A stretch of 64,000 bases of DNA from Candidatus Micrarchaeota archaeon. GTDB taxonomy: Archaea; Micrarchaeota; Micrarchaeia; Anstonellales; Bilamarchaeaceae. Position numbers and translations under genes: made by a program. Below the pieces are notes generated by a model. That model saw only the letters and a program-made list of their open reading frames with translations. It had not been told where the DNA came from and searched no databases. This document shows, piece after piece, positions 32,050 to 58,463 of this stretch (its first letter is position 1; every line of letters begins with the position of its first letter). Location: positions 4,575 to 68,574 of the forward strand of contig WJIU01000009.1 of the NCBI GenBank assembly GCA_014730115.1, in the 5' to 3' direction.

Positions 32050-34629
32050 TTACTCTTCCCCTGTTTCATCTTCTTCGTCAAGTATGTACGGGCTTCCGCT
32101 GGAAGGCAGATAATCCTCCCAGTCATCTTCATAGGCAAGCTGAATCAGCCTCTTGTCCGGCGGGCACCACGCGATTTCACAGCCGTTCTTCAGCTGGTAG
32201 TAAGCGGCCATCTTGTTGGCACCGGGGTCTGCCTGCCTTGGGAGGTACTGTATTTCACAGTCATGGACATACTCCACGAAATCAGTGTAGCCGTAGCACT
32301 GGTCAAGGTCGGGAAGGCCGTCATCAGTGCATTCCGGAGGATACTCGTCCTTGTCCCTGTTGTCCTCGCACCACTCTGCATCAATCTCCCAGCTGTCCCT
32401 GAAATTGTCCGCCCAGCACCTCCCGTTGTTCCACGATGACGGACATTCCGGGTTGGAGGAGCCGGCATACCAGAATCCTGCGTACATGTTGGCTGCTATG
32501 TAGGCGGCAAAGACGCTGTCCTTTTCATAGTCCTCCTCTCCCCAGTTGAGATAGGCACGGTTGTTCTCTATCCAGGTCCTTGCATCCCCCAGGTTTTCGG
32601 CCATCTTGGCGGTTCCGAAGCAGAGGGTATGGCTTACATTGAACGGGTTGAAACGGCCGTCCGGAGCACAGGCGCGGGCTGCTGGAATCCTCTGGTCTCT
32701 CATGCTCGGGGTGTCAAAGCCGCTCCGGTCGAATATGTCATAGTAGGGGTTGTCCACTCCCGGGGTGAGGCCCTCGGGAAGCTTGTCGTCGGGCCAGAAG
32801 GTGTACGGGGGGTCGGTAACCTGCATAAGCCCCAGGGCGCACCACCTCCACTGCGGGGAATCGGTATCTGAGTCAGGGGCAATGGCAAACGTGCAGTTGC
32901 CGGCAGGGTCGTACATCTCATCATAGGCAGGCTTGGCATAGCATTCACTGGCGCCGCTGGTCACCCGTGCAAAACACCCGGCCCCTTCGTAATCGGCGGC
33001 ACACACCTTGGCCGCGGCACAGGGGTCGAATCCCGATTCGGTGCGTATGAAAGCGCGCACAAGCAGGGGGTCGATGTTCCTGCGGTCTGCCCATGCCTCT
33101 ATCTCAGGGAAAGAAGTGCACCATTCCTCGGGGGGCGTTCCGGTCATTGAAACGCTTGCCACGCCGAAGTTGAACGGCGGCTCTTCCCTGGTCAGATTGT
33201 TGGTGATGCAGTCCATGCACCGGTAGAGCACAGGGTCTGGGTCGTCAAGCTCGGACTGTACAGGGTTTAGAAGGTCCCCTCCCCCGCCAAGGTTGGCATA
33301 CTGCACCTGCCTAATCATGAAGTCAAGGTTTCCTCCCTGGTCGCAGTAGCCTGCAGATTCATTTGGAAATATAATAGGGGTTCCCGCACCGCGGGTATTT
33401 GTGGAGCCGCTGGAAATCTGGGCATAGTCCTGGCATCCTGCGAACCAGGAGCGCAGCCGGTTCTGGTTTTTGGCCAGGTCACAGTCGTTGCACTCCAGGG
33501 GGTTCATGACCCCATATTGAGTGGAGTACATGGAATAGGGAGCCGCCCCTATTACGCCCTTCTGCTGAAGGGCAAGTATGGTGTCCGGCCAGAACGCTGA
33601 GTATGCCTCGGTCATGAGGTTCTCGCTCCACTGGCAGGTGTTGTCTGCATCCGGGCCGGACGAATCAAAGAGAATGTAGGGTATTATGGTCGGCTTTCCA
33701 TGGTTGTACAGTGCATGCTCGGAAAAGTTCAGGGCCTGGCTCATGATTATGTCATCAGGGTCGCAACCATGGGCATACCTGTAGTCAATGCCATAGGCAA
33801 CCAGGTCCACCTCTTCCTTGATTCCGGGGGTGTTGAGCAGTGCATCCATCGCCTCGTAGTCATTGAACTTGGGGGCAACCGCCACAAAGCAGTTGATTTC
33901 CCCGCTCTCGGCATGGCGGTTGGGATTGCATTCATCGTTGATTCTCCTCACCTGCTCTGCCACCAGGTCGGCCTGGCTGGCGTCGGCGTTCATCTCTGTG
34001 ACCACCACTACCGGTCCGACCGGTCCCTCGGTCAGGGTGCCCAGGGTCACATCATCCCCTTCGGTATAAAGCACATGGGCAATGTCCCCTGCCCTGGTGG
34101 CATCAATGTCCTCGCCCCCGCTGTACATTACATACACCGGCATGACATCCTTGGTCAAAAGGCATATTGCCCGGCTGGCGTCGGGAAGCCCATAGGGGTT
34201 CTCTTCATCAGCAAGCAGCCACTGCACCGCCATGCTGAGCCCGTAATGGCAGTAGGTCTGTGCATCCGAAAAGTCGGAAATAGAAGGCCCCTGGCCTATC
34301 ATGAACTGCCGTATCATGATGCCCTCATTGTCATCCCCCCAGAGCAGGTCGGAGGTTGTCTGCCTTGTGCAGTTGGTATTCCACTGACAGCTCCCGCCGG
34401 CCAGGTTGTTTGACATGCCAAGTGATTCGATGTTCAGGCCGCTCTCGCACACGAAGCAGTGGCAGCTTCCAACCTGGCATTCCTCCAGCTGGCTGGGGTC
34501 GGAAACCGCAATCCTGCCGTGCTGCCGGATGTCGTCGTAATAGCTTTGTGCGTACTGGGAGCCGCCCATGTTGCTTACGCATCCGTATGCAAGCAGGAGC
34601 AACATTACAAATATGGCAAATTTTCTCAT
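32050..34629 (-). CDS. Secreted, cysteine-rich 859-aa protein with a lytic-transglycosylase (SLT/GH23)-like core and acidic C-terminal tail
   Basis: Signal peptide with lipobox-like LLAYGC and about 36 Cys by my count. LLVRAFIRTESGFDP (aa 522-536), CALGLMQVTDP (aa 597-607) and FAAYIAANMYAG (aa 707-718) resemble the three SLT motifs. AGGAG lies 6 nt before the ATG. Confidence 0.6.
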   Translation of the reverse strand: MRKFAIFVMLLLLAYGCVSNMGGSQYAQSYYDDIRQHGRIAVSDPSQLEECQVGSCHCFVCESGLNIESLGMSNNLAGGSCQWNTNCTRQTTSDLLWGDDNEGIMIRQFMIGQGPSISDFSDAQTYCHYGLSMAVQWLLADEENPYGLPDASRAICLLTKDVMPVYVMYSGGEDIDATRAGDIAHVLYTEGDDVTLGTLTEGPVGPVVVVTEMNADASQADLVAEQVRRINDECNPNRHAESGEINCFVAVAPKFNDYEAMDALLNTPGIKEEVDLVAYGIDYRYAHGCDPDDIIMSQALNFSEHALYNHGKPTIIPYILFDSSGPDADNTCQWSENLMTEAYSAFWPDTILALQQKGVIGAAPYSMYSTQYGVMNPLECNDCDLAKNQNRLRSWFAGCQDYAQISSGSTNTRGAGTPIIFPNESAGYCDQGGNLDFMIRQVQYANLGGGGDLLNPVQSELDDPDPVLYRCMDCITNNLTREEPPFNFGVASVSMTGTPPEEWCTSFPEIEAWADRRNIDPLLVRAFIRTESGFDPCAAAKVCAADYEGAGCFARVTSGASECYAKPAYDEMYDPAGNCTFAIAPDSDTDSPQWRWCALGLMQVTDPPYTFWPDDKLPEGLTPGVDNPYYDIFDRSGFDTPSMRDQRIPAARACAPDGRFNPFNVSHTLCFGTAKMAENLGDARTWIENNRAYLNWGEEDYEKDSVFAAYIAANMYAGFWYAGSSNPECPSSWNNGRCWADNFRDSWEIDAEWCEDNRDKDEYPPECTDDGLPDLDQCYGYTDFVEYVHDCEIQYLPRQADPGANKMAAYYQLKNGCEIAWCPPDKRLIQLAYEDDWEDYLPSSGSPYILDEEDETGEE

Positions 34630-34672
34630 GGAAAACTCCTGAATAAAATAAGATAAGAAAGAAATAAAAGGG

Positions 34673-37600
34673 CTAATACAGCACCGTTCCGCAGGAACAC
34701 CTGCTGCCCCTCACGCCGGCCCTGCTGCATCTCGGGCAGTAGACCACCATGTGGAGCTTGTGCGGCTGCATGAGCCTTGAGGTTCCCCTTCCGAGGCTGC
34801 GTGCAGTGCTCTTGAGGCCCTGTCCGTAGCCTCCCCTGCGTCCCTCCTTTGCACGCCTCACATAATTGGACACCATGTCCCTGGGCGTAAGGCTGGTCGG
34901 GTAGAGAGGCACTGGCATGTGCCACATGAACGCTATGGGGTTGGCCCACCCCATAAGCGGGTTCTGCATTGCACCGAAGCCCCTGAGCTCCTGGTCCCTT
35001 CTCAATGCAAGGGCCTCTGCCGACACCGTCCTTCTGGTGGTGTTGGTCCAGGCTGCCTCCTGCACCTTCTTGTCATGCATATAGGTGGCTTCGTTGGCCC
35101 TCAGCATGTATTCTGCCATGGGCGCGTCCAGCTGCATCTCGTGCCTGTAGTTGTAGAAGCTGGCACCGGGGTTTACCTCACCGGTCCTTGCGTTTGCATA
35201 CACACCCTTCTTGTGCAGGAATACATCCTGGGGTGCCTGCCTAAGGCCGGCTGCAAACTCCGGACCTGCAAGCTGGTGCTGCTCAAGGCTTCCGCCGAAC
35301 TTATTGAGCTTGGATATCCTTTCGCTGGTCTTGCCCGGGAACCACTTGAAGGAGAACGGGTTCAGCGACTGCATTGCCTCCCTGAGCCTGGGCGGGGTGT
35401 AGTTGAACTGCCTGAGCGCATCGCCGGTTGCATCGAACTTGGCAGGAGCGCCCTGCATGGACATCTGGAGGCCCCTTATCATTCCAGTGTATGGCCTCAT
35501 CATCTTGCCCGCAAGGTTCATCGGGAACCCGTAGCCTGCCATGAAGCTAGCGTACTCGCCCCGGTCCATGTAGGCCCTGAGGTTGCTTCTGACATCAAAG
35601 TTGGCTGAAGGCCCGTAGTGGAAGAACGCCTGCCAGCTCTGCTGCTGACCGAACGAGGTCGACATCCTCCAGGGATTTCTGTCAATTGCAAAGTCCCAGA
35701 CCTGGTGGTAGGAATAATGCTGCATTGCAACATTCCTGTATGCAACCTTCTCCTCCTCGGTAAGGTTCTGCATGTCGCGGCCAGACATTATCCGGTTGGA
35801 AAGCTGCCAGGAGTGCTGCCTGTAATACTCAGACACCGGGGTAATGTCATACGATGCCTTGTGGAGCGGCCCTCCTGCGGCAAGCGCTGTCTTGGATATG
35901 TAGTCTCCGGCATGCATTCCCATGTCCCTGAACGGCTTGATGACCTTGCTGGTAAAGCCGGGGGCCTCCACGCCAAAGAACCTCATTGGCGACGGAGCCG
36001 AAGGTGTTACCTGGCGCTTGGCTTCAACCGAGACCGAGCTGTTCCTCCAGAACCTCTCGTAGTCATGGGTGGTGTTCGCATACTGCCACAGAACCGCTGC
36101 AAATACTTTCTCCTTTTCGTAGTTGTAGCCCCCTCCCTTGGCCCACTTGGTGGCCGAGCCTATGAAGTTGTCCCAGTCATGGGTGTTCTGGGAGCCGGCG
36201 ACCCGGTAGAACTCCCTCAGCAGGTCGTCCCTGTCCCCGAACTTGATTGGAATGTCTTCAGGTATGAACTTCCTGAGCTGCCCTTTCTCGTCCCTGAGTG
36301 CGACCTCGCCGGAGAGCACACGGTCCTGGTCGCTCAGCATCATGTTCTTTTTGTAGAATGCAAAGCCACCTTCATGAAGCATGACCAGGGCCTGGTTGGT
36401 CTTGGCCACATCATCGTAGGTAACCGGCTTGCTGAGCAGCGCCTCGTATTCCTTCTGGTGGGACTGCATTATGTTGGACAGGTTGGACAGGTCCCTGGGA
36501 TTGGTGGTGTCCATCTCCTCCAGGAACCTTATAGTCGGGTTGTTCTTGGCAAAGCCCTTGTCCTTTAGCGCTTTCTCCATGAAGCCGGCCATTATGCCCC
36601 CGTAGAACCTCACTGTTTCCGCAGTGGTTCCGTAGGTGTTGTGCCCGAAGTGAGAGTTGAACCTCTGCTCCATGTCCTGCTGGAGCTGGTCAAGCACCCA
36701 CAGCTTCTTTGCCTCGGAAGTGCGCTGCTGGACGGTCCAGTTGGCTGAGCCGGCTGCCCTGTCCAGCTCTGCTTCTATTGATGCCTGGTAAGGGGGCACA
36801 TAGCTCTTGGTGAACCTGGACTCAACCCACTGGCCGATTGCATAGTTCTCCCTGGGGTCAAGGCCGGAAACCCAGTGCCTCTTCATGTCCACAAGGGTAG
36901 AGCCCTTGGGCAGGGTAAGCTCCTCGTCGGCTCCCCACCAGACCATCTTCTTGGTCTTGGGGTCTATATGTCCGGTCTTGGGCATGTTCCCTCCGTACAT
37001 GAACTGCACTATCTCGTTCATTGAAGCGTTGTTTATGCTCTTGTTGTTGGTCTGCTGGAAGAGCTTTCTGCCGTCCTCGCTGAACAGGGTTATCATGTCC
37101 TTCCTGTTTCTCTCTGCAACAGCCTCCAGCTGTGTCATGTTCCGCATGTGCTCGGGAAGCTCGTGCGCGCCATGTACCGGGTTGAGGGTTCCAATCCTGT
37201 TGGCAACGTTCAGCCTGGCTGAAAGCAGCTCCTCCTTCATTCCGGCATTGGCTGCCAGGTGGCCGTTCTCCGCATCCCAGATATATGTCCGGAAAATCAT
37301 GGTTTCCCAGATCTGCGATCCCTTCAGCGAATCCCCGCCTACATGGCAGAGATAGGCATCCTCATTTGCCATCCCGCCGGTGTTTACTGACATGCGCACC
37401 TTGTTCTGCTGCTCAAGCTCCTCCTGAAGCAGAAGCAGCTTCACATGGTCAGGATGGGCAGACTGCTCTATGCTCTGGACGCTGTTGGCAAGCTTGAGAA
37501 GCTCGCCGTCAACGGTGGCACCCCTGGACTTTGCAAGGTCCAGAAGCGCGCTGAGCTTCTGCTGGCCGTCTCCGGAACCGGTAAGTATCTTTCTTATCTG

Positions 37601-39400
37601 GCCTTCCAGCTGCCGGAGCTCCTCGGACGATGTATATCCTGACCTTTTCAGGATGTCCAGGTCCCTGTAGCCCATCTCCGCAAGCTCGTGCTCGCTGATA
37701 TTGAACTTTATGCCCATCTTGCGGTAAAGCTGCCTTAGTACATACCTCATCTCATCGCGGAGCGTTTCCTTCCGCAGGGTGCGGTAGAGGTGGGCCATCT
37801 TGTCGTTTACCGGGAACATCTGCCCCACGACTATATCTGACGGGTGTTTCTTGGTAAGCCATGCCGCAGTGGCAGACGTCTTTGCCCTTTCCTCCAGCTG
37901 CTCGACTGCGCGCCTTCCACCGACCATTCCCATGGTGGTCCTGGTTACTCCGCGGGCAAGCTCGGGAACCCCCTTGGCCATCTGCTTGGTCATTCTGCCG
38001 GCAACCTTTCCTGTCCTTATTGTTGAGTCGTACATTGCCGGTGCAAAGCCTCCTATGACTGCATACCTGTTGGCCCCGAACGCCTTGCCGATTTTGCTGG
38101 TGACCCTGGAGTGGAATGCGTCCCTTTTGCCTACATCATTGTGGCCGGTAATGGCTTCCAGGCTCTGGTATGTCCTCTGGCCGAGCATGTAGTCCTTAAG
38201 CGTCATTGCCAGGAGTGCGTTCTTGCCGCCCTTTGCTTCAAGCGCTTCCACAATCTGGGCAACAGTGCGGTGGGCCCTGTCATCCCAGTGGTAGGGAAGG
38301 CGCCCTGCGAGATGCTCAAGCTCCTCGGTGCTCATGCCGACCTGGCGTCCTGCGGTTACCGCCGCCTCTGCAATTTTCTTTCCTTCTTCCACATCTCCGG
38401 CTGCACGGTCGCCAGCAGTCCCCTTCAGGCCCTTTATCCCCCTTTTAAGTCTGTCAAGCGTAGCGTCTCCAGCCATCCTCCTGCTCATGCCTCTGGCAGT
38501 AAGCAGGGCTGCACCGGCAGCCTTGCCCATCTTTCCCCTGGTGGTCCTTTTCAGCTCTGTGTAGCCGAAAGGCATCAGCACCTGGCCGCCCGCAGCCACA
38601 CCCTTGGGCTGGGGCATTCTGGGCGTGGTAATGTCAAGCAGTGTTATGGGCGACTTTCCTGCAAAGTAAAGCGATGCAAGCAGCAGGCCCAGTATCATGA
38701 ATACGCCGAGGCAAAGCGGCGAGGTTGAAACCCCTGAAATCTGTGCAACTATGAGGTCCCTGAGGTTCTTGGTGAACTGCTCGGCAGCAGGCACCCGTAC
38801 ATTGTTGAAGTAATATAATGACCTGCTGGGCCTTATGTCCTGGCCCGGCTCCGGGTCGTAGTTTATTCTTAATGTAGTCCTTCCGGGCTGTCCTTCCACT
38901 GCCGGAGCGAAGTCACACTCTGCATAATAGTAGCTTACTGTCTCCAGCCCGCCGGGGTCAGTAGCGGAAGGGGTTGTTGCGGTGCCGGGGGTGCTGGTAA
39001 TTCTATTTGAACACCCCTGGACAGGTGTGTAGCTCCCTGATATTGTATTATAATATTCCACTGTAATCCTGGCATCGCTGAGGAATTCGAATTCGGGGTT
39101 GTATCCTGCAGAGGCCGCAGTCCTCCGGTTGGCCTCTTCCATAATGCATGCCTGGTCTCCTTCACAATCTTCTACAATTTCCTGCATAACCAAGCGTATG
39201 TCGGTCCCGGACTGGCCGGTTGCAGGGTTGAAAACCATCACGCTGACGTGGAGAACGGTGTCCTCATCCTCAACAGGAGTGACTACCACCTGGCTCTCCC
39301 TGAGGCTGCTGTCTCCCCCTGTCGGGAAGCCGCCGGCAAACACGCTGGCGGCAAGGAGCAGCAGCAACACGGCCCCGAAAACATAATTTTTAGATGTCAT
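34673..39400 (-). CDS. Orphan 1575-aa membrane protein: signal/anchor, ~200-aa ectodomain, one TM helix, ~1300-aa cytosolic region, C-terminal zinc ribbon
   Basis: An uninterrupted 4.7-kb ORF. N-terminal VFGAVLLLLLAASVFAGG and a TM helix LCLGVFMILGLLLASLYFAG (aa ~227-247) followed by a K/R-rich stretch. It ends in CPRCSRAGVRGSRCSCG. No P-loop or HExxH was seen, and the antisense ORFs look artefactual. Confidence 0.75.
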   Translation of the reverse strand: MTSKNYVFGAVLLLLLAASVFAGGFPTGGDSSLRESQVVVTPVEDEDTVLHVSVMVFNPATGQSGTDIRLVMQEIVEDCEGDQACIMEEANRRTAASAGYNPEFEFLSDARITVEYYNTISGSYTPVQGCSNRITSTPGTATTPSATDPGGLETVSYYYAECDFAPAVEGQPGRTTLRINYDPEPGQDIRPSRSLYYFNNVRVPAAEQFTKNLRDLIVAQISGVSTSPLCLGVFMILGLLLASLYFAGKSPITLLDITTPRMPQPKGVAAGGQVLMPFGYTELKRTTRGKMGKAAGAALLTARGMSRRMAGDATLDRLKRGIKGLKGTAGDRAAGDVEEGKKIAEAAVTAGRQVGMSTEELEHLAGRLPYHWDDRAHRTVAQIVEALEAKGGKNALLAMTLKDYMLGQRTYQSLEAITGHNDVGKRDAFHSRVTSKIGKAFGANRYAVIGGFAPAMYDSTIRTGKVAGRMTKQMAKGVPELARGVTRTTMGMVGGRRAVEQLEERAKTSATAAWLTKKHPSDIVVGQMFPVNDKMAHLYRTLRKETLRDEMRYVLRQLYRKMGIKFNISEHELAEMGYRDLDILKRSGYTSSEELRQLEGQIRKILTGSGDGQQKLSALLDLAKSRGATVDGELLKLANSVQSIEQSAHPDHVKLLLLQEELEQQNKVRMSVNTGGMANEDAYLCHVGGDSLKGSQIWETMIFRTYIWDAENGHLAANAGMKEELLSARLNVANRIGTLNPVHGAHELPEHMRNMTQLEAVAERNRKDMITLFSEDGRKLFQQTNNKSINNASMNEIVQFMYGGNMPKTGHIDPKTKKMVWWGADEELTLPKGSTLVDMKRHWVSGLDPRENYAIGQWVESRFTKSYVPPYQASIEAELDRAAGSANWTVQQRTSEAKKLWVLDQLQQDMEQRFNSHFGHNTYGTTAETVRFYGGIMAGFMEKALKDKGFAKNNPTIRFLEEMDTTNPRDLSNLSNIMQSHQKEYEALLSKPVTYDDVAKTNQALVMLHEGGFAFYKKNMMLSDQDRVLSGEVALRDEKGQLRKFIPEDIPIKFGDRDDLLREFYRVAGSQNTHDWDNFIGSATKWAKGGGYNYEKEKVFAAVLWQYANTTHDYERFWRNSSVSVEAKRQVTPSAPSPMRFFGVEAPGFTSKVIKPFRDMGMHAGDYISKTALAAGGPLHKASYDITPVSEYYRQHSWQLSNRIMSGRDMQNLTEEEKVAYRNVAMQHYSYHQVWDFAIDRNPWRMSTSFGQQQSWQAFFHYGPSANFDVRSNLRAYMDRGEYASFMAGYGFPMNLAGKMMRPYTGMIRGLQMSMQGAPAKFDATGDALRQFNYTPPRLREAMQSLNPFSFKWFPGKTSERISKLNKFGGSLEQHQLAGPEFAAGLRQAPQDVFLHKKGVYANARTGEVNPGASFYNYRHEMQLDAPMAEYMLRANEATYMHDKKVQEAAWTNTTRRTVSAEALALRRDQELRGFGAMQNPLMGWANPIAFMWHMPVPLYPTSLTPRDMVSNYVRRAKEGRRGGYGQGLKSTARSLGRGTSRLMQPHKLHMVVYCPRCSRAGVRGSRCSCGTVLY

Positions 39401-39463
39401 GAATAGTTCGGGCCTCTGGCGCTTTAAAAATGTTTAGGTTTAAAGGTAATGGTGAAACTACAA

Positions 39464-39484
39464 AAACTACAAGGCTTGTAGTTT
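39464..39484. promoter_or_regulatory. Perfect 10+1+10 palindrome AAACTACAAG-G-CTTGTAGTTT between divergent promoters
   Basis: It lies between TTTTTAAA (minus-strand TATA-like, 39421-39432 region) and TATAATA (39491-39497). AACTACAA also occurs in tandem at 39457-39472. Confidence 0.6.
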
Positions 39485-39515
39485 ATTGTCGTATAATAGG
39501 CAAAAAGGTGTTGTT

Positions 39516-40532
39516 ATGAAAGGACCAAACCCGTTTTCACCATGGGAGGAAGCTCCCGGAAGCATTATAGGAAGAAAAGAGGAAACCAGGATATTTAATG
39601 CTTTCCTCAACGCCACATCCTCCAAGCAGACCGGAATGATAGTGATGACCGGCACCCCCGGCCTGGGAAAAAGCTCCCTTCTCAGGTATTTCCGACAGAT
39701 GGCAGAAAAAGAGGGAATGCTCGCTCCCCTGGTAAAGGTTGAAAAGGGAGAAAACGAAGAGGCAGTGGCCGAGAAGCTCCACCACGAACTGGCCATCCTT
39801 CCCGGCTTTGCAACCCGGGGAAAGGGGGCCCCCTCAAGGCTAGATGAGCTCCCTGATAAAACAAAGCTGGACAAGCAGCATTTCGGGATTGTTTTCTTTA
39901 TAGACGATATAGACCTGATGAAAAAAAACGAGCGTGCTGTGAAGAAACTGGCAGAAACTGTCAGGAAGCATTACGGAAAAAAGCCGTTTTCATTTGTTGT
40001 CAGCTCCACCAGGGAATTCAGGGTAAGGTCAGAGCTTGTCCAGCTGATTGAGCTGGAGCCTTTTACCGAGGAAAATGCAAGGGAGATGGTGGAAAAGGCG
40101 CTCAAGGAGAAAAAACTGAAGATGGGGGAGGGGTGCCTGAAGACAATCCTGGCAGACACCAACGGAAACCAGAAGCTGTTCAAGAGCGTGTGCCGTTACA
40201 TCTACGACCGCCTCCGGGAAAATGAAAAGGTCATGACCAAGGGGCATTACCTCGCCTATCTCCCCTATATAATGAGCATGCTGTCCAGGGAATCCTTTGG
40301 CAGGATGTACCAGGAAACGCCGCCGGCGGAAAGAAGCATACTCCATGAGATAGCAAAAAATGAAAAAGGAGGGCACATATCGGATGTTGCCGGAGAAATC
40401 GGCCGCCCCCTCGGCCAGGTTACCGCGCTAGCAAAAAGACTGCTGGACCGGGGGCAGATTGTGAGGATGGAAAGGGGGAAGTACAGGATTTTTTCACGGC
40501 TTTATGCCCGGTATGTCCTCCAGAGGGGCTAG
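39516..40532 (+). CDS. P-loop NTPase (archaeal-ATPase/AAA-like) with C-terminal winged-helix domain
   Basis: Walker A GTPGLGKSS, Walker B-like IVFFIDDID, and a C-terminal ISDVAGEIGRPLGQVTALAKRLLDRGQIVRMERGKYRI. ATG at 39516 after AAAAAGGTG. Confidence 0.7.
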   Translation: MKGPNPFSPWEEAPGSIIGRKEETRIFNAFLNATSSKQTGMIVMTGTPGLGKSSLLRYFRQMAEKEGMLAPLVKVEKGENEEAVAEKLHHELAILPGFATRGKGAPSRLDELPDKTKLDKQHFGIVFFIDDIDLMKKNERAVKKLAETVRKHYGKKPFSFVVSSTREFRVRSELVQLIELEPFTEENAREMVEKALKEKKLKMGEGCLKTILADTNGNQKLFKSVCRYIYDRLRENEKVMTKGHYLAYLPYIMSMLSRESFGRMYQETPPAERSILHEIAKNEKGGHISDVAGEIGRPLGQVTALAKRLLDRGQIVRMERGKYRIFSRLYARYVLQRG

Positions 40533-41047
40533 TAGGCAAGCAGCCAGTCAGTCTCAAAAACATAGAGAAATTCTTCCACAGACCCCCTGTCTCTGATTAT
40601 TACCGATGCCTCACGGTTTTTCGTAAGGGCAGAATTGCTGAGGTTATGGGAACCGACAAGCACTGCCTTTCCGTCAACAAGTATGAATTTGGAGTGGGTA
40701 AGCTTGTATGTGTCCGAAGCATAACGGACATTGAAACCCTTGGAAGCCAGCTCGCGGTAGATTTCCTGGTTTTTTGTTCCCAGGGTGTTTCTCTCTATTA
40801 TTATCCTAATACTGACTCCGCGGGCCTTTGCCCGCTCCAGGGCCTCAATAACATCCCTAGAGGATATCACATAGATTTCAATGTCAATAGTTTCCTCGGC
40901 TGTATCTATGAAATCAATTATTTTCTGCCCGCCCTCCGGAGAGAATACAGCAGTAATCACAGGAGAAAAGACGAATTCCGAAAGCAGAAAATGGATTGAT
41001 AATCCAAGAATCAGCCCCACAAAAACAAAAGTTGCGTCACGCCTCAT
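40529..41047 (-). CDS. Membrane-anchored single-HKD phospholipase D-family protein (Nuc-like nuclease/phosphodiesterase)
   Basis: N-terminal TM helix FVFVGLILGLSIHFLL and the HKD motif HSKFILVDGKAVLVGSHNLSNSA. Confidence 0.8.
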   Translation of the reverse strand: MRRDATFVFVGLILGLSIHFLLSEFVFSPVITAVFSPEGGQKIIDFIDTAEETIDIEIYVISSRDVIEALERAKARGVSIRIIIERNTLGTKNQEIYRELASKGFNVRYASDTYKLTHSKFILVDGKAVLVGSHNLSNSALTKNREASVIIRDRGSVEEFLYVFETDWLLAY

Positions 41048-56990: not shown

Positions 56991-58463
56991 TCACTTCTTT
57001 GATGGCTTCCTCAGCCTGAAGTACCAGAGCAGCAAAGCTCCAACAACCACTATCGAGCCCGCAACATAGGGAATGGATGAAGATTCCTCCTGGGTTCCGT
57101 TGTAGATGCTTATGTCCTGCTTCAGGGTTTTCTGCTTCCACCCCCCGGACTGGTCACGGTAGTTGACAGTGATATGCGCAGGGTATGTCCCCGGCCCGGT
57201 GGCATTGACCTCCATCTGGAACTGTACGGTAGAGAAGTCGTCCCTCTGCAGCCCCCCTATGTACTGCTGGTCGGAGATGTCTATGCTCTTGAGAGCCGGG
57301 GAGGAAAACTGCACATCCACATTTTCAATATTGAATGAGCCAAGGTTGGACACCAGGACAGATATTGTATGCTCCTGGCCCACAATAAGGGGAAGTGGTT
57401 TTGCCTCCAGGAAAACACCGACATCCGCATCAGAGGTTACAGTTACCGGAACCATTCTGCTGGTGCTTTTCTGCACGTCCCTTTCAATCCATTCAAGCTC
57501 TGCATCAACCAGGTTTACGCCGGCCGGAAGCTCGGTGAACACACTCAGGGAAACCGTGCTGCTTTCCCCGGGACCGATGTCACCGAAATCATACTCTTCC
57601 TTTTCGGTTATCTTAATGCTGCCGTTTGAAAACATCAGGGTGACATCCTCAAGCCGCTCGCTTCCTTCATTGGTAACCTCCAGTGTCAGGGTATCGGTGC
57701 TCCTTGTCCTGATGTCGGAAGCCTGGAGGATTTGAAGGTCAAGCTTCTCGTTTCTGACTGTCATCCTGAGGAACGTTTCATCGATGTGGTGTATGCCAAT
57801 CTCATCCTCATATTCAATCTTGAAGGGAACATCAACCGGCCCGTCCTCCGCATTCCTGGAATCCAGGGAAACCGGCACCACAGTAGAATTTTCCCCAAGG
57901 GAAGAAATAAAAATCTCGTTTCTTCCGTAAAGGGCTATTTCGGAATCCCCGGGGATACGTATCCTCACATTGTTGGCAGTGCCTCCGCTGTTGGATATGT
58001 TCAGGTTTATCTGCTCAATGCCATTCAGTACCTTTTCCTCAGCGGAAAGCCCGAACACGGGGGCATGCACCACTGTAATTGGAAACGAGAGCCTCCGGGT
58101 GAAGACTTCGTAGCCGCCCATCGGCTTGTCCGAGACTCCGCTGATGTCCACCCGCACCGTATATATGGCGCTCTTTGCATCCTTGTCTACCTTGAAAGGC
58201 AGGGATACCGTGGTGGAGCCTCCAGGCTCAAGGTCTCCTATGAAAATCTCTCCGCTGATTGTAATCTGCGGCGGAGAATCCACCTCCATATTTACGCCGG
58301 TTATGGCCTTGGTGGCAGCCTCCGTGTTTGCAACCACCAGGGTTACTACCCCGTTGGTCCCGGGCTTGAAACTTTCCTGGGAAACGCTTGTGCTGGTTAC
58401 TGAAAGCCCGGCAAAAGAGGCGCTAAACAGTACCAGCAATAACAATACATGCTTCATATTCAT
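56991..58463 (-). CDS. Surface protein with repeated beta-sandwich (CARDB/S-layer-like) modules and a C-terminal membrane anchor
   Basis: Signal peptide and repeated segments such as TLVVANTEAA / NLNISNSGGTA / TLEVTNEGSE / SVLVSNLGSF. The C-terminal TM helix is followed by RLRKPSKK. Confidence 0.7.
   Translation of the reverse strand: MNMKHVLLLLVLFSASFAGLSVTSTSVSQESFKPGTNGVVTLVVANTEAATKAITGVNMEVDSPPQITISGEIFIGDLEPGGSTTVSLPFKVDKDAKSAIYTVRVDISGVSDKPMGGYEVFTRRLSFPITVVHAPVFGLSAEEKVLNGIEQINLNISNSGGTANNVRIRIPGDSEIALYGRNEIFISSLGENSTVVPVSLDSRNAEDGPVDVPFKIEYEDEIGIHHIDETFLRMTVRNEKLDLQILQASDIRTRSTDTLTLEVTNEGSERLEDVTLMFSNGSIKITEKEEYDFGDIGPGESSTVSLSVFTELPAGVNLVDAELEWIERDVQKSTSRMVPVTVTSDADVGVFLEAKPLPLIVGQEHTISVLVSNLGSFNIENVDVQFSSPALKSIDISDQQYIGGLQRDDFSTVQFQMEVNATGPGTYPAHITVNYRDQSGGWKQKTLKQDISIYNGTQEESSSIPYVAGSIVVVGALLLWYFRLRKPSKK

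Follow-up and report, generated by a model that had tools for sequence, protein, structure and literature searches.

In bacteria, cell wall hydrolases are known that are controlled by transmembrane partners, as in the FtsEX-EnvC-amidase system; MltG is itself membrane-anchored. Among the archaea, the Woese- and Pacearchaeota encode large extracellular proteins with an SLT domain, which have been interpreted as acting on bacterial walls (2021, PMC8204110), and one extracellular member of glycoside hydrolase (GH) family 23 has been noted in a metagenome-assembled genome (MAG) of the Micrarchaeota (PMC8561730). A large part of archaeal diversity belongs to the DPANN archaea, yet very little is known of the molecules with which they form their surfaces and deal with other cells. 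The inspection of a 64-kb stretch of a Candidatus Micrarchaeota MAG (contig WJIU01000009.1, positions 4,575 to 68,574; the whole stretch is called the window, and coordinates refer to it) revealed two adjacent genes, one coding for a very large membrane protein (hereafter the giant) and the other for a Cys-rich exported protein (the partner), accompanied by a divergently transcribed ATPase gene and a conserved palindromic element. These genes are tentatively read here as a regulated, vertically inherited envelope module of the Micrarchaeota, built around an extracellular glycan-cutting enzyme.

The giant gene corresponds to the open reading frame (ORF) at 34673-39400 on the minus strand (1575 aa, locus tag GF318_00980), and the partner gene to that at 32050-34629 on the same strand (859 aa, GF318_00975). 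Both proteins were identical to NCBI entries of a Candidatus Micrarchaeota MAG, in which the two locus tags are consecutive. The first-pass annotation, a reading of the sequence alone, had described two co-oriented minus-strand genes filling more than 11% of the window, separated by 43 nt and with an AGGAG motif 6 nt before the second ATG. This layout was confirmed: the two genes span 7,351 nt (11.5% of the window), and the 43-nt spacer (34630-34672) contains a T-rich block as well as the AGGAG at the position given. The same annotation had called the giant an orphan, which it proved not to be. Protein searches found 58 full-length homologues at 90% clustering (the window protein included; 32-68% identity, 1,560-1,670 aa) and 48 homologues of the partner, and all those bearing names belonged to the Micrarchaeota or Bilamarchaeaceae. 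When a single genome was scanned for each GTDB species, giant loci were identified in 49 species, all of them Micrarchaeota, the identity to the giant falling from 68% to about 30%. Further, an exhaustive HMMER search of 1.84 billion representative proteins with a profile of the giant core returned only 116 matches; the full-length ones were 1,420-2,009 aa long and aligned from about residue 500, and those with names were again Micrarchaeota.

The two genes also occur together elsewhere. In 43 of the 44 GTDB species loci with enough downstream DNA, tblastn placed the partner directly downstream of the giant and on the same strand; in the exception (L032) only 1.8 kb was left downstream, and the other five contigs ended inside or just past the giant gene. 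Independent metagenome contigs showed the same layout, and the partner again adjoined the giant in a locus coding for a 1,950-aa variant of the latter (L055). In locus L022 the partner was duplicated in tandem (852 and 878 aa), still beside the giant (L022 14770-21344). A low-complexity spacer of about 1.4 kb parts the giant from the partner in L022, and also in L021; a 384-aa ORF lying between the two genes in L022 was of low complexity, gave no Pfam match and is probably not a gene. Genes for topoisomerase VI (topo VI) and TFB were found within 10 kb of the module in most loci, topo VI lying upstream of the module in L001, L041 and L044 and downstream in most others.

The GC content of the module was 0.566, as compared with 0.498 in the rest of the window. 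An excess of 2-6.5 points over the flanks was present in every genome examined (flank GC 0.36-0.62). Since the excess occurs in all genomes and tracks the genome GC, it is to be seen as a property of the genes and not as a sign of transfer. Neither the giant nor the partner gave matches in PADLOC or PHROGs. The fixed synteny with topo VI and TFB, the tracking of genome GC and the lack of PADLOC and PHROGs matches together indicate core genes passed on by vertical inheritance and speak against a mobile element.

Across 38 loci, the spacer between the giant and the partner had a median length of 76 nt and a maximum of 455 nt. Runs of at least five T residues were present in 28 of the 38 spacers, and a Shine-Dalgarno-like motif in only four, so the AGGAG found in the window is not a conserved feature. 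A semi-conserved T-rich, TATA-like block (TTTTATTTCTTTC..TAATTTTAT) lies just past the stop codon of the giant; this block may end or attenuate transcription, or may act as a TATA box for a partner mRNA with almost no leader. Co-transcription of the giant and the partner is therefore plausible but uncertain.

The partner gene (32050-34629, minus strand; 48 homologues) is predicted to encode a Cys-rich, extracellular, two-domain glycanase-like protein. Its AlphaFold2 (AF2) model, based on the family alignment, reached a pLDDT of 88.2 and a predicted TM-score (pTM) of 0.88. The protein is acidic, contains 36 Cys residues and begins with a signal peptide (residues 1-22; 34564-34629, minus strand) that carries a lipobox-like AYG|C17. 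G16 and C17, at the end of the signal, were each more than 90% conserved, and one member of the family matched the Pfam lipoprotein signal family LPAM_1; relative to the lipobox consensus [LVI][ASTVI][GAS]C, positions -3 and -2 are non-canonical. The lipobox-like G16-C17, the 36 Cys residues and the acidic composition suggest the partner to be a lipid-anchored extracellular enzyme, probably not a freely secreted one. The earlier description of an exported, disulfide-rich protein stood as regards the signal and the Cys content, but 'secreted' should probably read 'lipid-anchored'.

The first-pass annotation had taken a lytic-transglycosylase-like core for the only recognisable part of the partner. 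This was not borne out, as a second domain was found in its N-terminal half: Foldseek, DSSP and residue conservation point to a clan GH-A-type (β/α)8 (TIM) barrel at residues 101-425 (33355-34329, minus strand). In a Foldseek search of the PDB, the barrel matched structures of families GH53, GH26, GH113, GH39, GH2 and GH30 (E=1e-5 to 1e-3, probability 1.0), and DSSP showed strands and helices to alternate in the model. E212, which is invariant, lies at the end of β4 (after strand 207-210), the position of the acid/base of clan GH-A, and is preceded by T211. Strand β7 (residues 314-320) ends in D322 (89% conserved), with E336 (91%) following 14 residues on. Since the residues at β4 and β7 are non-canonical, the catalytic competence of the modelled barrel stays a proposal. 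No Pfam or NCBIfam match assigned it to a GH family by sequence, whether residues 94-423 were scanned alone or within the whole partner. When compared with the clan GH-A endo-glycanases (GH53 4bf7, GH26 7xs3, GH113 4cd6 and the GH39 enzyme PslG, 4zn2), the partner has in common with them the barrel fold (target TM-score of about 0.4-0.57) and the Glu at the end of β4. It differs from them in having T-E for N-E at β4 and Asp for Glu at β7, in its additional Cys-rich N-terminal module, and in its sequence, identity to the structures being only 9-14%, with no Pfam or CAZy-type sequence match.

The other domain, at residues 501-720 (32470-33129, minus strand), is SLT/GH23-like and contains large Cys-rich insertions. 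The Pfam SLT model (PF01464, cut-off 21.3 bits) gave 27.0 bits for the isolated domain (E=3.5e-6) and 21.4 bits for the whole partner, and was matched by 22 of 44 members of the partner family (E≤0.1). The motifs D520-P..R525..E531-S532, G600-L-M-Q603, W612 and Y716-A-G718 were 89-100% conserved. In the first of these, E531 (98% conserved, followed by S532 at 93%) lies at the C-terminal end of helix 521-531 of the model; in the GLMQ motif, G600 and Q603 were 100% and 98% conserved. The third motif is represented only by Y716-A-G718 (89% and 100%), the spacing being widened by the long insertions. At the level of sequence motifs, the C-terminal half of the partner is thus SLT/GH23-like, and the lytic-transglycosylase-like region seen in the first pass is genuine. 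As in the family 1 lytic transglycosylases of GH23 (E. coli Slt70, MltE), residues ~510-720 match SLT and keep DP..A....ES.F.P, GLMQ and a Y-x-G version of AYNxG, and the candidate catalytic Glu is also at a helix end in the model. In contrast to those enzymes, the partner has about 55 and about 110 extra residues, with several disulfides, inserted between the motifs; its SLT-like domain is fused to a GH-A-type barrel, and in an archaeon; and it gives neither a PDB sequence match nor an hhalign match to Slt70 alone. PDB sequence searches with the partner returned nothing, and phmmer with the isolated SLT-like domain only chance matches. GH23 also includes chitinases. Overall, the partner is likely to be an extracellular glycan-active enzyme.

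The giant (34673-39400, minus strand), known now from 58 homologues and 49 GTDB species loci, is a bitopic membrane protein with hydrophobic segments at residues 7-25 and 229-247 and no others. Residues 1-25 (39326-39400) form a signal peptide or N-terminal anchor, the Kyte-Doolittle hydropathy peaking at 2.38 over residues 7-25. They are followed by an acidic ectodomain (residues 26-225; 38726-39325) with four conserved Cys residues (Cys79, 85, 130 and 162), which gave no match when scanned alone against Pfam. Then come the transmembrane helix and a juxtamembrane motif, ..ASLYFAGKSPITLLDITTPRMPQPKGVAAGGQ.. (residues 226-285; 38546-38725), a basic linker and long-helix stalk (residues 286-520; 37841-38545; model pLDDT 57-79), a globular, mostly α-helical cytoplasmic core (residues 521-1490; 34931-37840), and a basic disordered tail with a C4 zinc ribbon (residues 1491-1575; 34676-34930), all on the minus strand. 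The net charge over residues 251-520, after the transmembrane helix, is +20. Besides the four conserved Cys of the ectodomain, only one was counted in the approximately 1,300 residues past the basic stretch; the C-terminus carries an invariant C-x2-C-x9-C-x-C ribbon (C1555, C1558, C1568 and C1570). The hydrophobic segments, the acidic Cys-bearing ectodomain, the basic stretch and the partitioning of the Cys residues argue for a protein that runs from the outside through the membrane to the inside, in agreement with the earlier view of a small ectodomain and a very large cytosolic mass.

Conservation was uneven along the giant. The mean identity of its homologues was 30% over the ectodomain, 51-59% over the cytoplasmic core and 74% over the transmembrane and juxtamembrane region, the most conserved segment of the protein. 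This last contains the block ..YFAGKSP[IL][ST]LLDITTPR.P.PKG..GGQ.. and has 21 invariant residues. Signal peptide, Cys-bearing ectodomain, transmembrane/juxtamembrane motif and zinc ribbon are all still present in giants recovered at E~1e-30, and the juxtamembrane motif is kept in the most distant ones, P0163 and P0171. At the locus of P0163 (L056), AAA_16 and ATPase_2 genes flank the giant, and genes for a rhomboid protease and a GT2 protein lie a few kb away.

An AF2 model of residues 376-1575 (pLDDT 83.1, pTM 0.85) showed a long-helix stalk, a large, mainly α-helical globule, a disordered basic tail and a small ribbon. The best Foldseek match of this model in the PDB had E=0.19 and a TM-score below 0.1, and the best in BFVD E=0.017, with a TM-score below 0.1 and a probability of 0.12 at most. 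Matches to importin, ATM, ABC-transporter, tape-measure and internal-virion proteins were rejected as meaningless at these TM-scores (<0.1). Sequence comparisons gave the same picture: nothing below E=0.1 in Pfam and NCBIfam, a best E of 1.2 in a profile search of the PDB, and no Pfam domain in five distant giants; matches to a DHHC palmitoyltransferase and to the L32 zinc ribbon, obtained from the PDB by phmmer and profile searches, were noise (E>1). Inspection of the list of invariant columns revealed no conserved Walker motifs. Going by this model, the giant represents a Micrarchaeota-restricted family with a new fold, as far as PDB and BFVD go, and is unlikely to belong to a known class of enzymes.

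A gene coding for a P-loop ATPase with a C-terminal winged helix-turn-helix (wHTH)-like region (Pfam AAA_16/nSTAND1/ATPase_2; 338 aa; 39516-40532, plus strand) is divergent from the giant in 47 of the 49 species loci. The mechanically called ORF (39486-40532) opens at a TTG at 39486, and the ATG at 39516 corresponds to its Met11. The conservation of the complementary CAT in 15 aligned upstream regions, together with the starts of the tblastn alignments, indicates the real start of the ATPase to be at 39516. The start codons of the ATPase and the giant are separated by 115 nt.

Conservation and motif scans revealed an operator in this intergenic region (39455-39484), composed of the palindrome ACTACA-N5-TGTAGT and a third TGTAGT half-site. 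The element ACTACA-N5-TGTAGT-N3-TGTAGT occupies 39457-39482, that is, -82 to -57 relative to the giant ATG, with half-sites at -82, -71 and -62. The palindrome occurs once in the window, as compared with 0.02 occurrences expected. In 1.12 Mb of related loci, 36 exact palindromes were found, all of them upstream of the giant and about 20 at exactly -82; two that the script had counted elsewhere belong to loci in which the tblastn match starts at giant residue 52 or 71. The full 26-nt element was present in 28 metagenome contigs, and in 26 of these the ATPase, the giant or both lay beside the site, oriented as expected; the remaining two sites were unrelated chance matches, one of them within a gene that is Cas6-like by eye. 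The operator is thus effectively private to the giant-ATPase intergenic region.

The alignment of the 15 upstream regions showed the whole divergent promoter to be conserved at the nucleotide level, in the order ATPase ATG, its TATA box (~39492-39498, plus strand), which directly adjoins the operator, then the three half-sites and, roughly 30 nt ahead of the giant ATG, a TTTATAAAG box. In the window, this last block reads TTTTTAAAG (39422-39430, minus strand; -30 to -22 from the ATG) and is the TATA box of the giant promoter; its distance from the ATG suggests the leader of the giant mRNA to be short or absent. The simplest explanation is that the adjacent ATPase-wHTH protein binds the operator and controls both promoters, a role to which we give even chances. 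Archaeal ATPase_2 (PF01637), AAA_16 and Orc1/Cdc6-like NTPases likewise combine a P-loop NTPase with a wHTH-like tail. Orc proteins sit next to origin recognition box (ORB) elements, and the ATPase of the window likewise adjoins a conserved inverted repeat. A replication origin was nevertheless rejected as an explanation. The match of the ATPase to the Orc1/Cdc6 model TIGR02928 was weak (21 bits, against a cut-off of 181.3); the 26-bp element, with its three half-sites, lies between two TATA boxes in a 115-nt region that has no AT-rich unwinding element and no room for one; and the genes flanking the region converge on it instead of diverging. On these grounds, an operator is more likely than an origin.

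Overlapping the 3′ end of the ATPase gene by 4 nt there is a gene (40529-41047, minus strand) for a 172-aa, single-HKD nuclease of the phospholipase D (PLD) family (PLDc_2, E=7.6e-30), which has an N-terminal hydrophobic anchor and also matches the NucT and DrmC models. Its position is kept in roughly two thirds of the loci. Whether it belongs to the module is uncertain, although a wall-cutting enzyme with an anchored extracellular nuclease nearby would hint at scavenging. The neighbours of the module in the window include topo VI B/A and TFB, as expected from the archaeal surroundings described in the first pass, as well as an iron-dependent repressor and aminotransferases. FeoB, adenylosuccinate lyase, phosphoglycerate kinase, S-adenosylhomocysteine hydrolase and topoisomerase I are also encoded in the window, and the first four of these are consistent with a metabolically richer lineage of Micrarchaeota. 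ARAGORN found no tRNA genes in the 64 kb. A 490-aa protein with NPCBM_assoc and CARDB domains (56991-58463, minus strand) is probably another surface/adhesion-type protein. Downstream of the module in two other loci there is a radical-SAM gene interrupted by an intein (Intein_splicing and LAGLIDADG; L001 18179-20608, L002 14227-16653).

In the envelope module proposed here, the partner would be exported and tethered to the outer side of the membrane through a lipid on Cys17. Its disulfide-stabilised GH-A-type and SLT/GH23 domains would cleave β-1,4-linked glycans of the N-acetylglucosamine/N-acetylmuramic acid (GlcNAc/MurNAc) type, or related ones, outside the cell. The Micrarchaeota are not known to make a β-1,4 GlcNAc/MurNAc-type polymer, and the likeliest substrates would therefore be the murein or exopolysaccharide of neighbouring bacteria or of necromass. 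The giant would be a type-I-like bitopic protein with its small, disulfide-bonded ectodomain in the same compartment as the partner; its transmembrane helix and near-invariant membrane-proximal motif would link this ectodomain to the cytoplasmic part of about 1,300 residues with the new fold. It may act as a membrane-spanning organiser or transducer that positions or controls the surface enzyme and couples the site to a cytoplasmic partner. The ATPase could be a nucleotide-dependent regulator that binds the operator between the two TATA boxes and controls its own gene and that of the giant. That the giant and the partner act together at all is, in our judgement, an even call. A bolder version, which we consider somewhat unlikely, would make the giant the core of an unrecognised Micrarchaeota envelope machine with a new fold: its ectodomain would dock the dual glycanase, its transmembrane motif would signal or form an oligomeric conduit, and the core and zinc ribbon would perform a new cytoplasmic activity, for example the capturing or processing of material from the walls or DNA of other cells, under a wHTH switch with a private operator.

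Several observations weigh against the module as proposed. Physical coupling between the giant and the partner is suggested by their synteny alone. The runs of five to eight T residues and the TATA-like block in the spacers mean that the two genes may be transcribed separately, and at the locus of P0163 (1753 aa), the most distant giant examined, there was no partner within 10 kb. As to the enzyme, the barrel lacks the N-E-P motif of clan GH-A (it has T211-E212) and a Glu at the end of β7. A homology search with the partner profile added a single protein, P0219 (444 aa, from a MAG labelled Ca. Parvarchaeota; 25% identity over residues 2-444), which has the Cys-rich N-terminus and the barrel of the partner and no SLT domain; the barrel thus occurs as a module in its own right. 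The SLT signal in the scan of the full-length partner was weak (21.4 bits), and no lysozyme fold was present among the 50 Foldseek matches listed, all of which were to the barrel half. Finally, hhalign produced no alignment of the partner family with the C-terminal domain of Slt70, although this is a weak test since the template is one sequence.

The first-pass annotation had proposed a different use for these genes, an apparatus for cell contact or for breaching a host wall in an archaeon living as an episymbiont or predator; here the SLT enzyme would open a bacterial or pseudomurein wall and the giant would anchor the contact site. The guess at such a lifestyle was reasonable for a DPANN archaeon, and the SLT motifs of the partner are conserved, an anchored NucT-like nuclease is often adjacent, and the ectodomain of the giant evolves fast (30% identity, against 51-59% for the core), as would be expected for a surface facing another organism. 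The large extracellular SLT proteins of the Woese- and Pacearchaeota have been read in this way (PMC8204110). However, the module is carried by Anstonellales/Bilamarchaeaceae and relatives, lineages to which a rich metabolism and a putatively free-living habit are ascribed (PMC8561730). The purine-synthesis and glycolysis genes of the window fit poorly with a host-breaching lifestyle, and so does a module that is present once, in syntenic position, and is regulated as tightly as housekeeping loci are. The hosts of the cultured Micrarchaeota are wall-less Thermoplasmatales. Further, the module includes no adhesin, pilus or secretion components, and an ectodomain of about 200 aa, with its mean identity of 30%, is short for spanning two envelopes. 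The reported metabolism of the lineage and the lack of adhesion or secretion parts weaken this explanation, and we regard an apparatus of this kind as unlikely.

The enzyme might instead be directed at the archaeon itself, trimming its own wall polymer, S-layer glycan or exopolysaccharide, with the giant as a scaffold comparable to those of a divisome or elongasome that positions the enzyme; bacteria likewise control hydrolases from within the cell, by FtsEX-EnvC or MltG. A module that is single-copy, phylum-wide, vertically inherited and placed beside housekeeping genes is what would be expected in this case, as are a dedicated regulator and operator, the strong purifying selection on the cytoplasmic core and transmembrane motif, and a huge cytoplasmic domain able to receive signals or positioning from inside the cell. 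Against this, no glycan wall is known in the Micrarchaeota, and the abstract of a preprint (bioRxiv 10.1101/2021.04.28.441871) reports for Ca. Micrarchaeum harzensis an S-layer over the cytoplasmic membrane. Further, no glycan-synthesis genes were linked to the module in the loci examined, nor was similarity to any divisome protein found in Pfam, by PDB profile search or with Foldseek against the PDB. Remodelling of the cell's own envelope thus also appears improbable.

It might also be argued that the pair is merely syntenic, the partner being a nutritional glycanase that works by itself under a promoter of its own, and the giant having some unrelated task in the cytoplasm or membrane. The spacer lengths (median 76 nt, up to 455 nt), the T runs in 28 of the 38 spacers and the TATA-like block, suitably spaced for a leaderless partner mRNA, would fit this, as would the absence of the partner beside the most distant giant and the stand-alone homologue of the barrel. 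Moreover, as the whole neighbourhood (topo VI, TFB, PLD) is syntenic, adjacency alone is weak evidence. Nonetheless, the pair stays adjoining and co-oriented where the surrounding order changes, as it does for topo VI in L001, L041 and L044; the tandem-duplicated partner of L022 is still beside the giant; and the Cys-bearing domains of the two proteins face one and the same compartment. We therefore consider independent genes to be quite unlikely. A mobile element, prophage remnant or defence island, which could be suspected from the GC difference within the window (0.566 against 0.498), the DrmC matches of the PLD protein, the STAND-like ATPase, the weak top BFVD matches to tape-measure and internal virion proteins and the occurrence of SLT domains in phage tail and ejection proteins, is effectively ruled out by the GC excess that scales with genome GC in every genome, the fixed chromosomal position across the 49 GTDB species loci, the want of PADLOC or PHROGs matches for either protein, the low scores of those BFVD matches (TM-score <0.1, probability ≤0.12) and the lack of hallmarks in the surroundings, where neither an integrase nor repeats nor a tRNA were found.

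The regulated envelope module remains the reading we tentatively prefer. It gives concrete starting points for experiments in a phylum of which few members have been cultured, namely a two-domain enzyme, a giant family, and a 26-bp operator with a candidate regulator. The substrate of the partner would reveal what these cells cut, be it a bacterial wall, a matrix or their own envelope. If the enzyme does attack murein, this would show directly that Micrarchaeota other than the acidophilic ARMAN group interact with bacteria or feed on them. A giant that links the enzyme with the cytoplasm would amount to a trans-envelope device of a new kind. Should the pair turn out to be merely syntenic, the partner would still be a new fusion of GH-A and GH23 domains, and the giant a phylum-defining unknown. 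The module is unusually well defined, deeply conserved and directly testable, although not astonishing in a phylum rich in hypothetical proteins.

The statement of the first-pass annotation that no described system matches this pair held against Pfam, NCBIfam, PDB, BFVD, PADLOC, PHROGs and the exhaustive HMMER search, and no description of the giant, of its pairing with an enzyme or of the regulator/operator unit was found in the literature. A purely functional analogy can be drawn with FtsEX-EnvC and MltG, in which an extracytoplasmic hydrolase is encoded or operated together with a membrane protein that reaches the cytoplasm, as might be the case for the giant and the partner. There is no similarity of sequence or fold between these systems and the giant, which has a single transmembrane helix and neither an ABC nor a YceG domain. 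The SLT proteins of the Woese- and Pacearchaeota resemble the partner in belonging to DPANN archaea and in having an extracellular SLT domain, and no pairing with a bitopic giant and no dedicated regulator or operator are described for them (PMC8204110). Going by their description, they are further set apart by size, being up to 3,000 aa long, while the partner of the Micrarchaeota combines a lipobox, a barrel and an SLT domain in 859 aa. With this combination of lipobox, GH-A barrel and SLT domain, the partner represents a new architecture among the glycan-lytic surface proteins of DPANN archaea.

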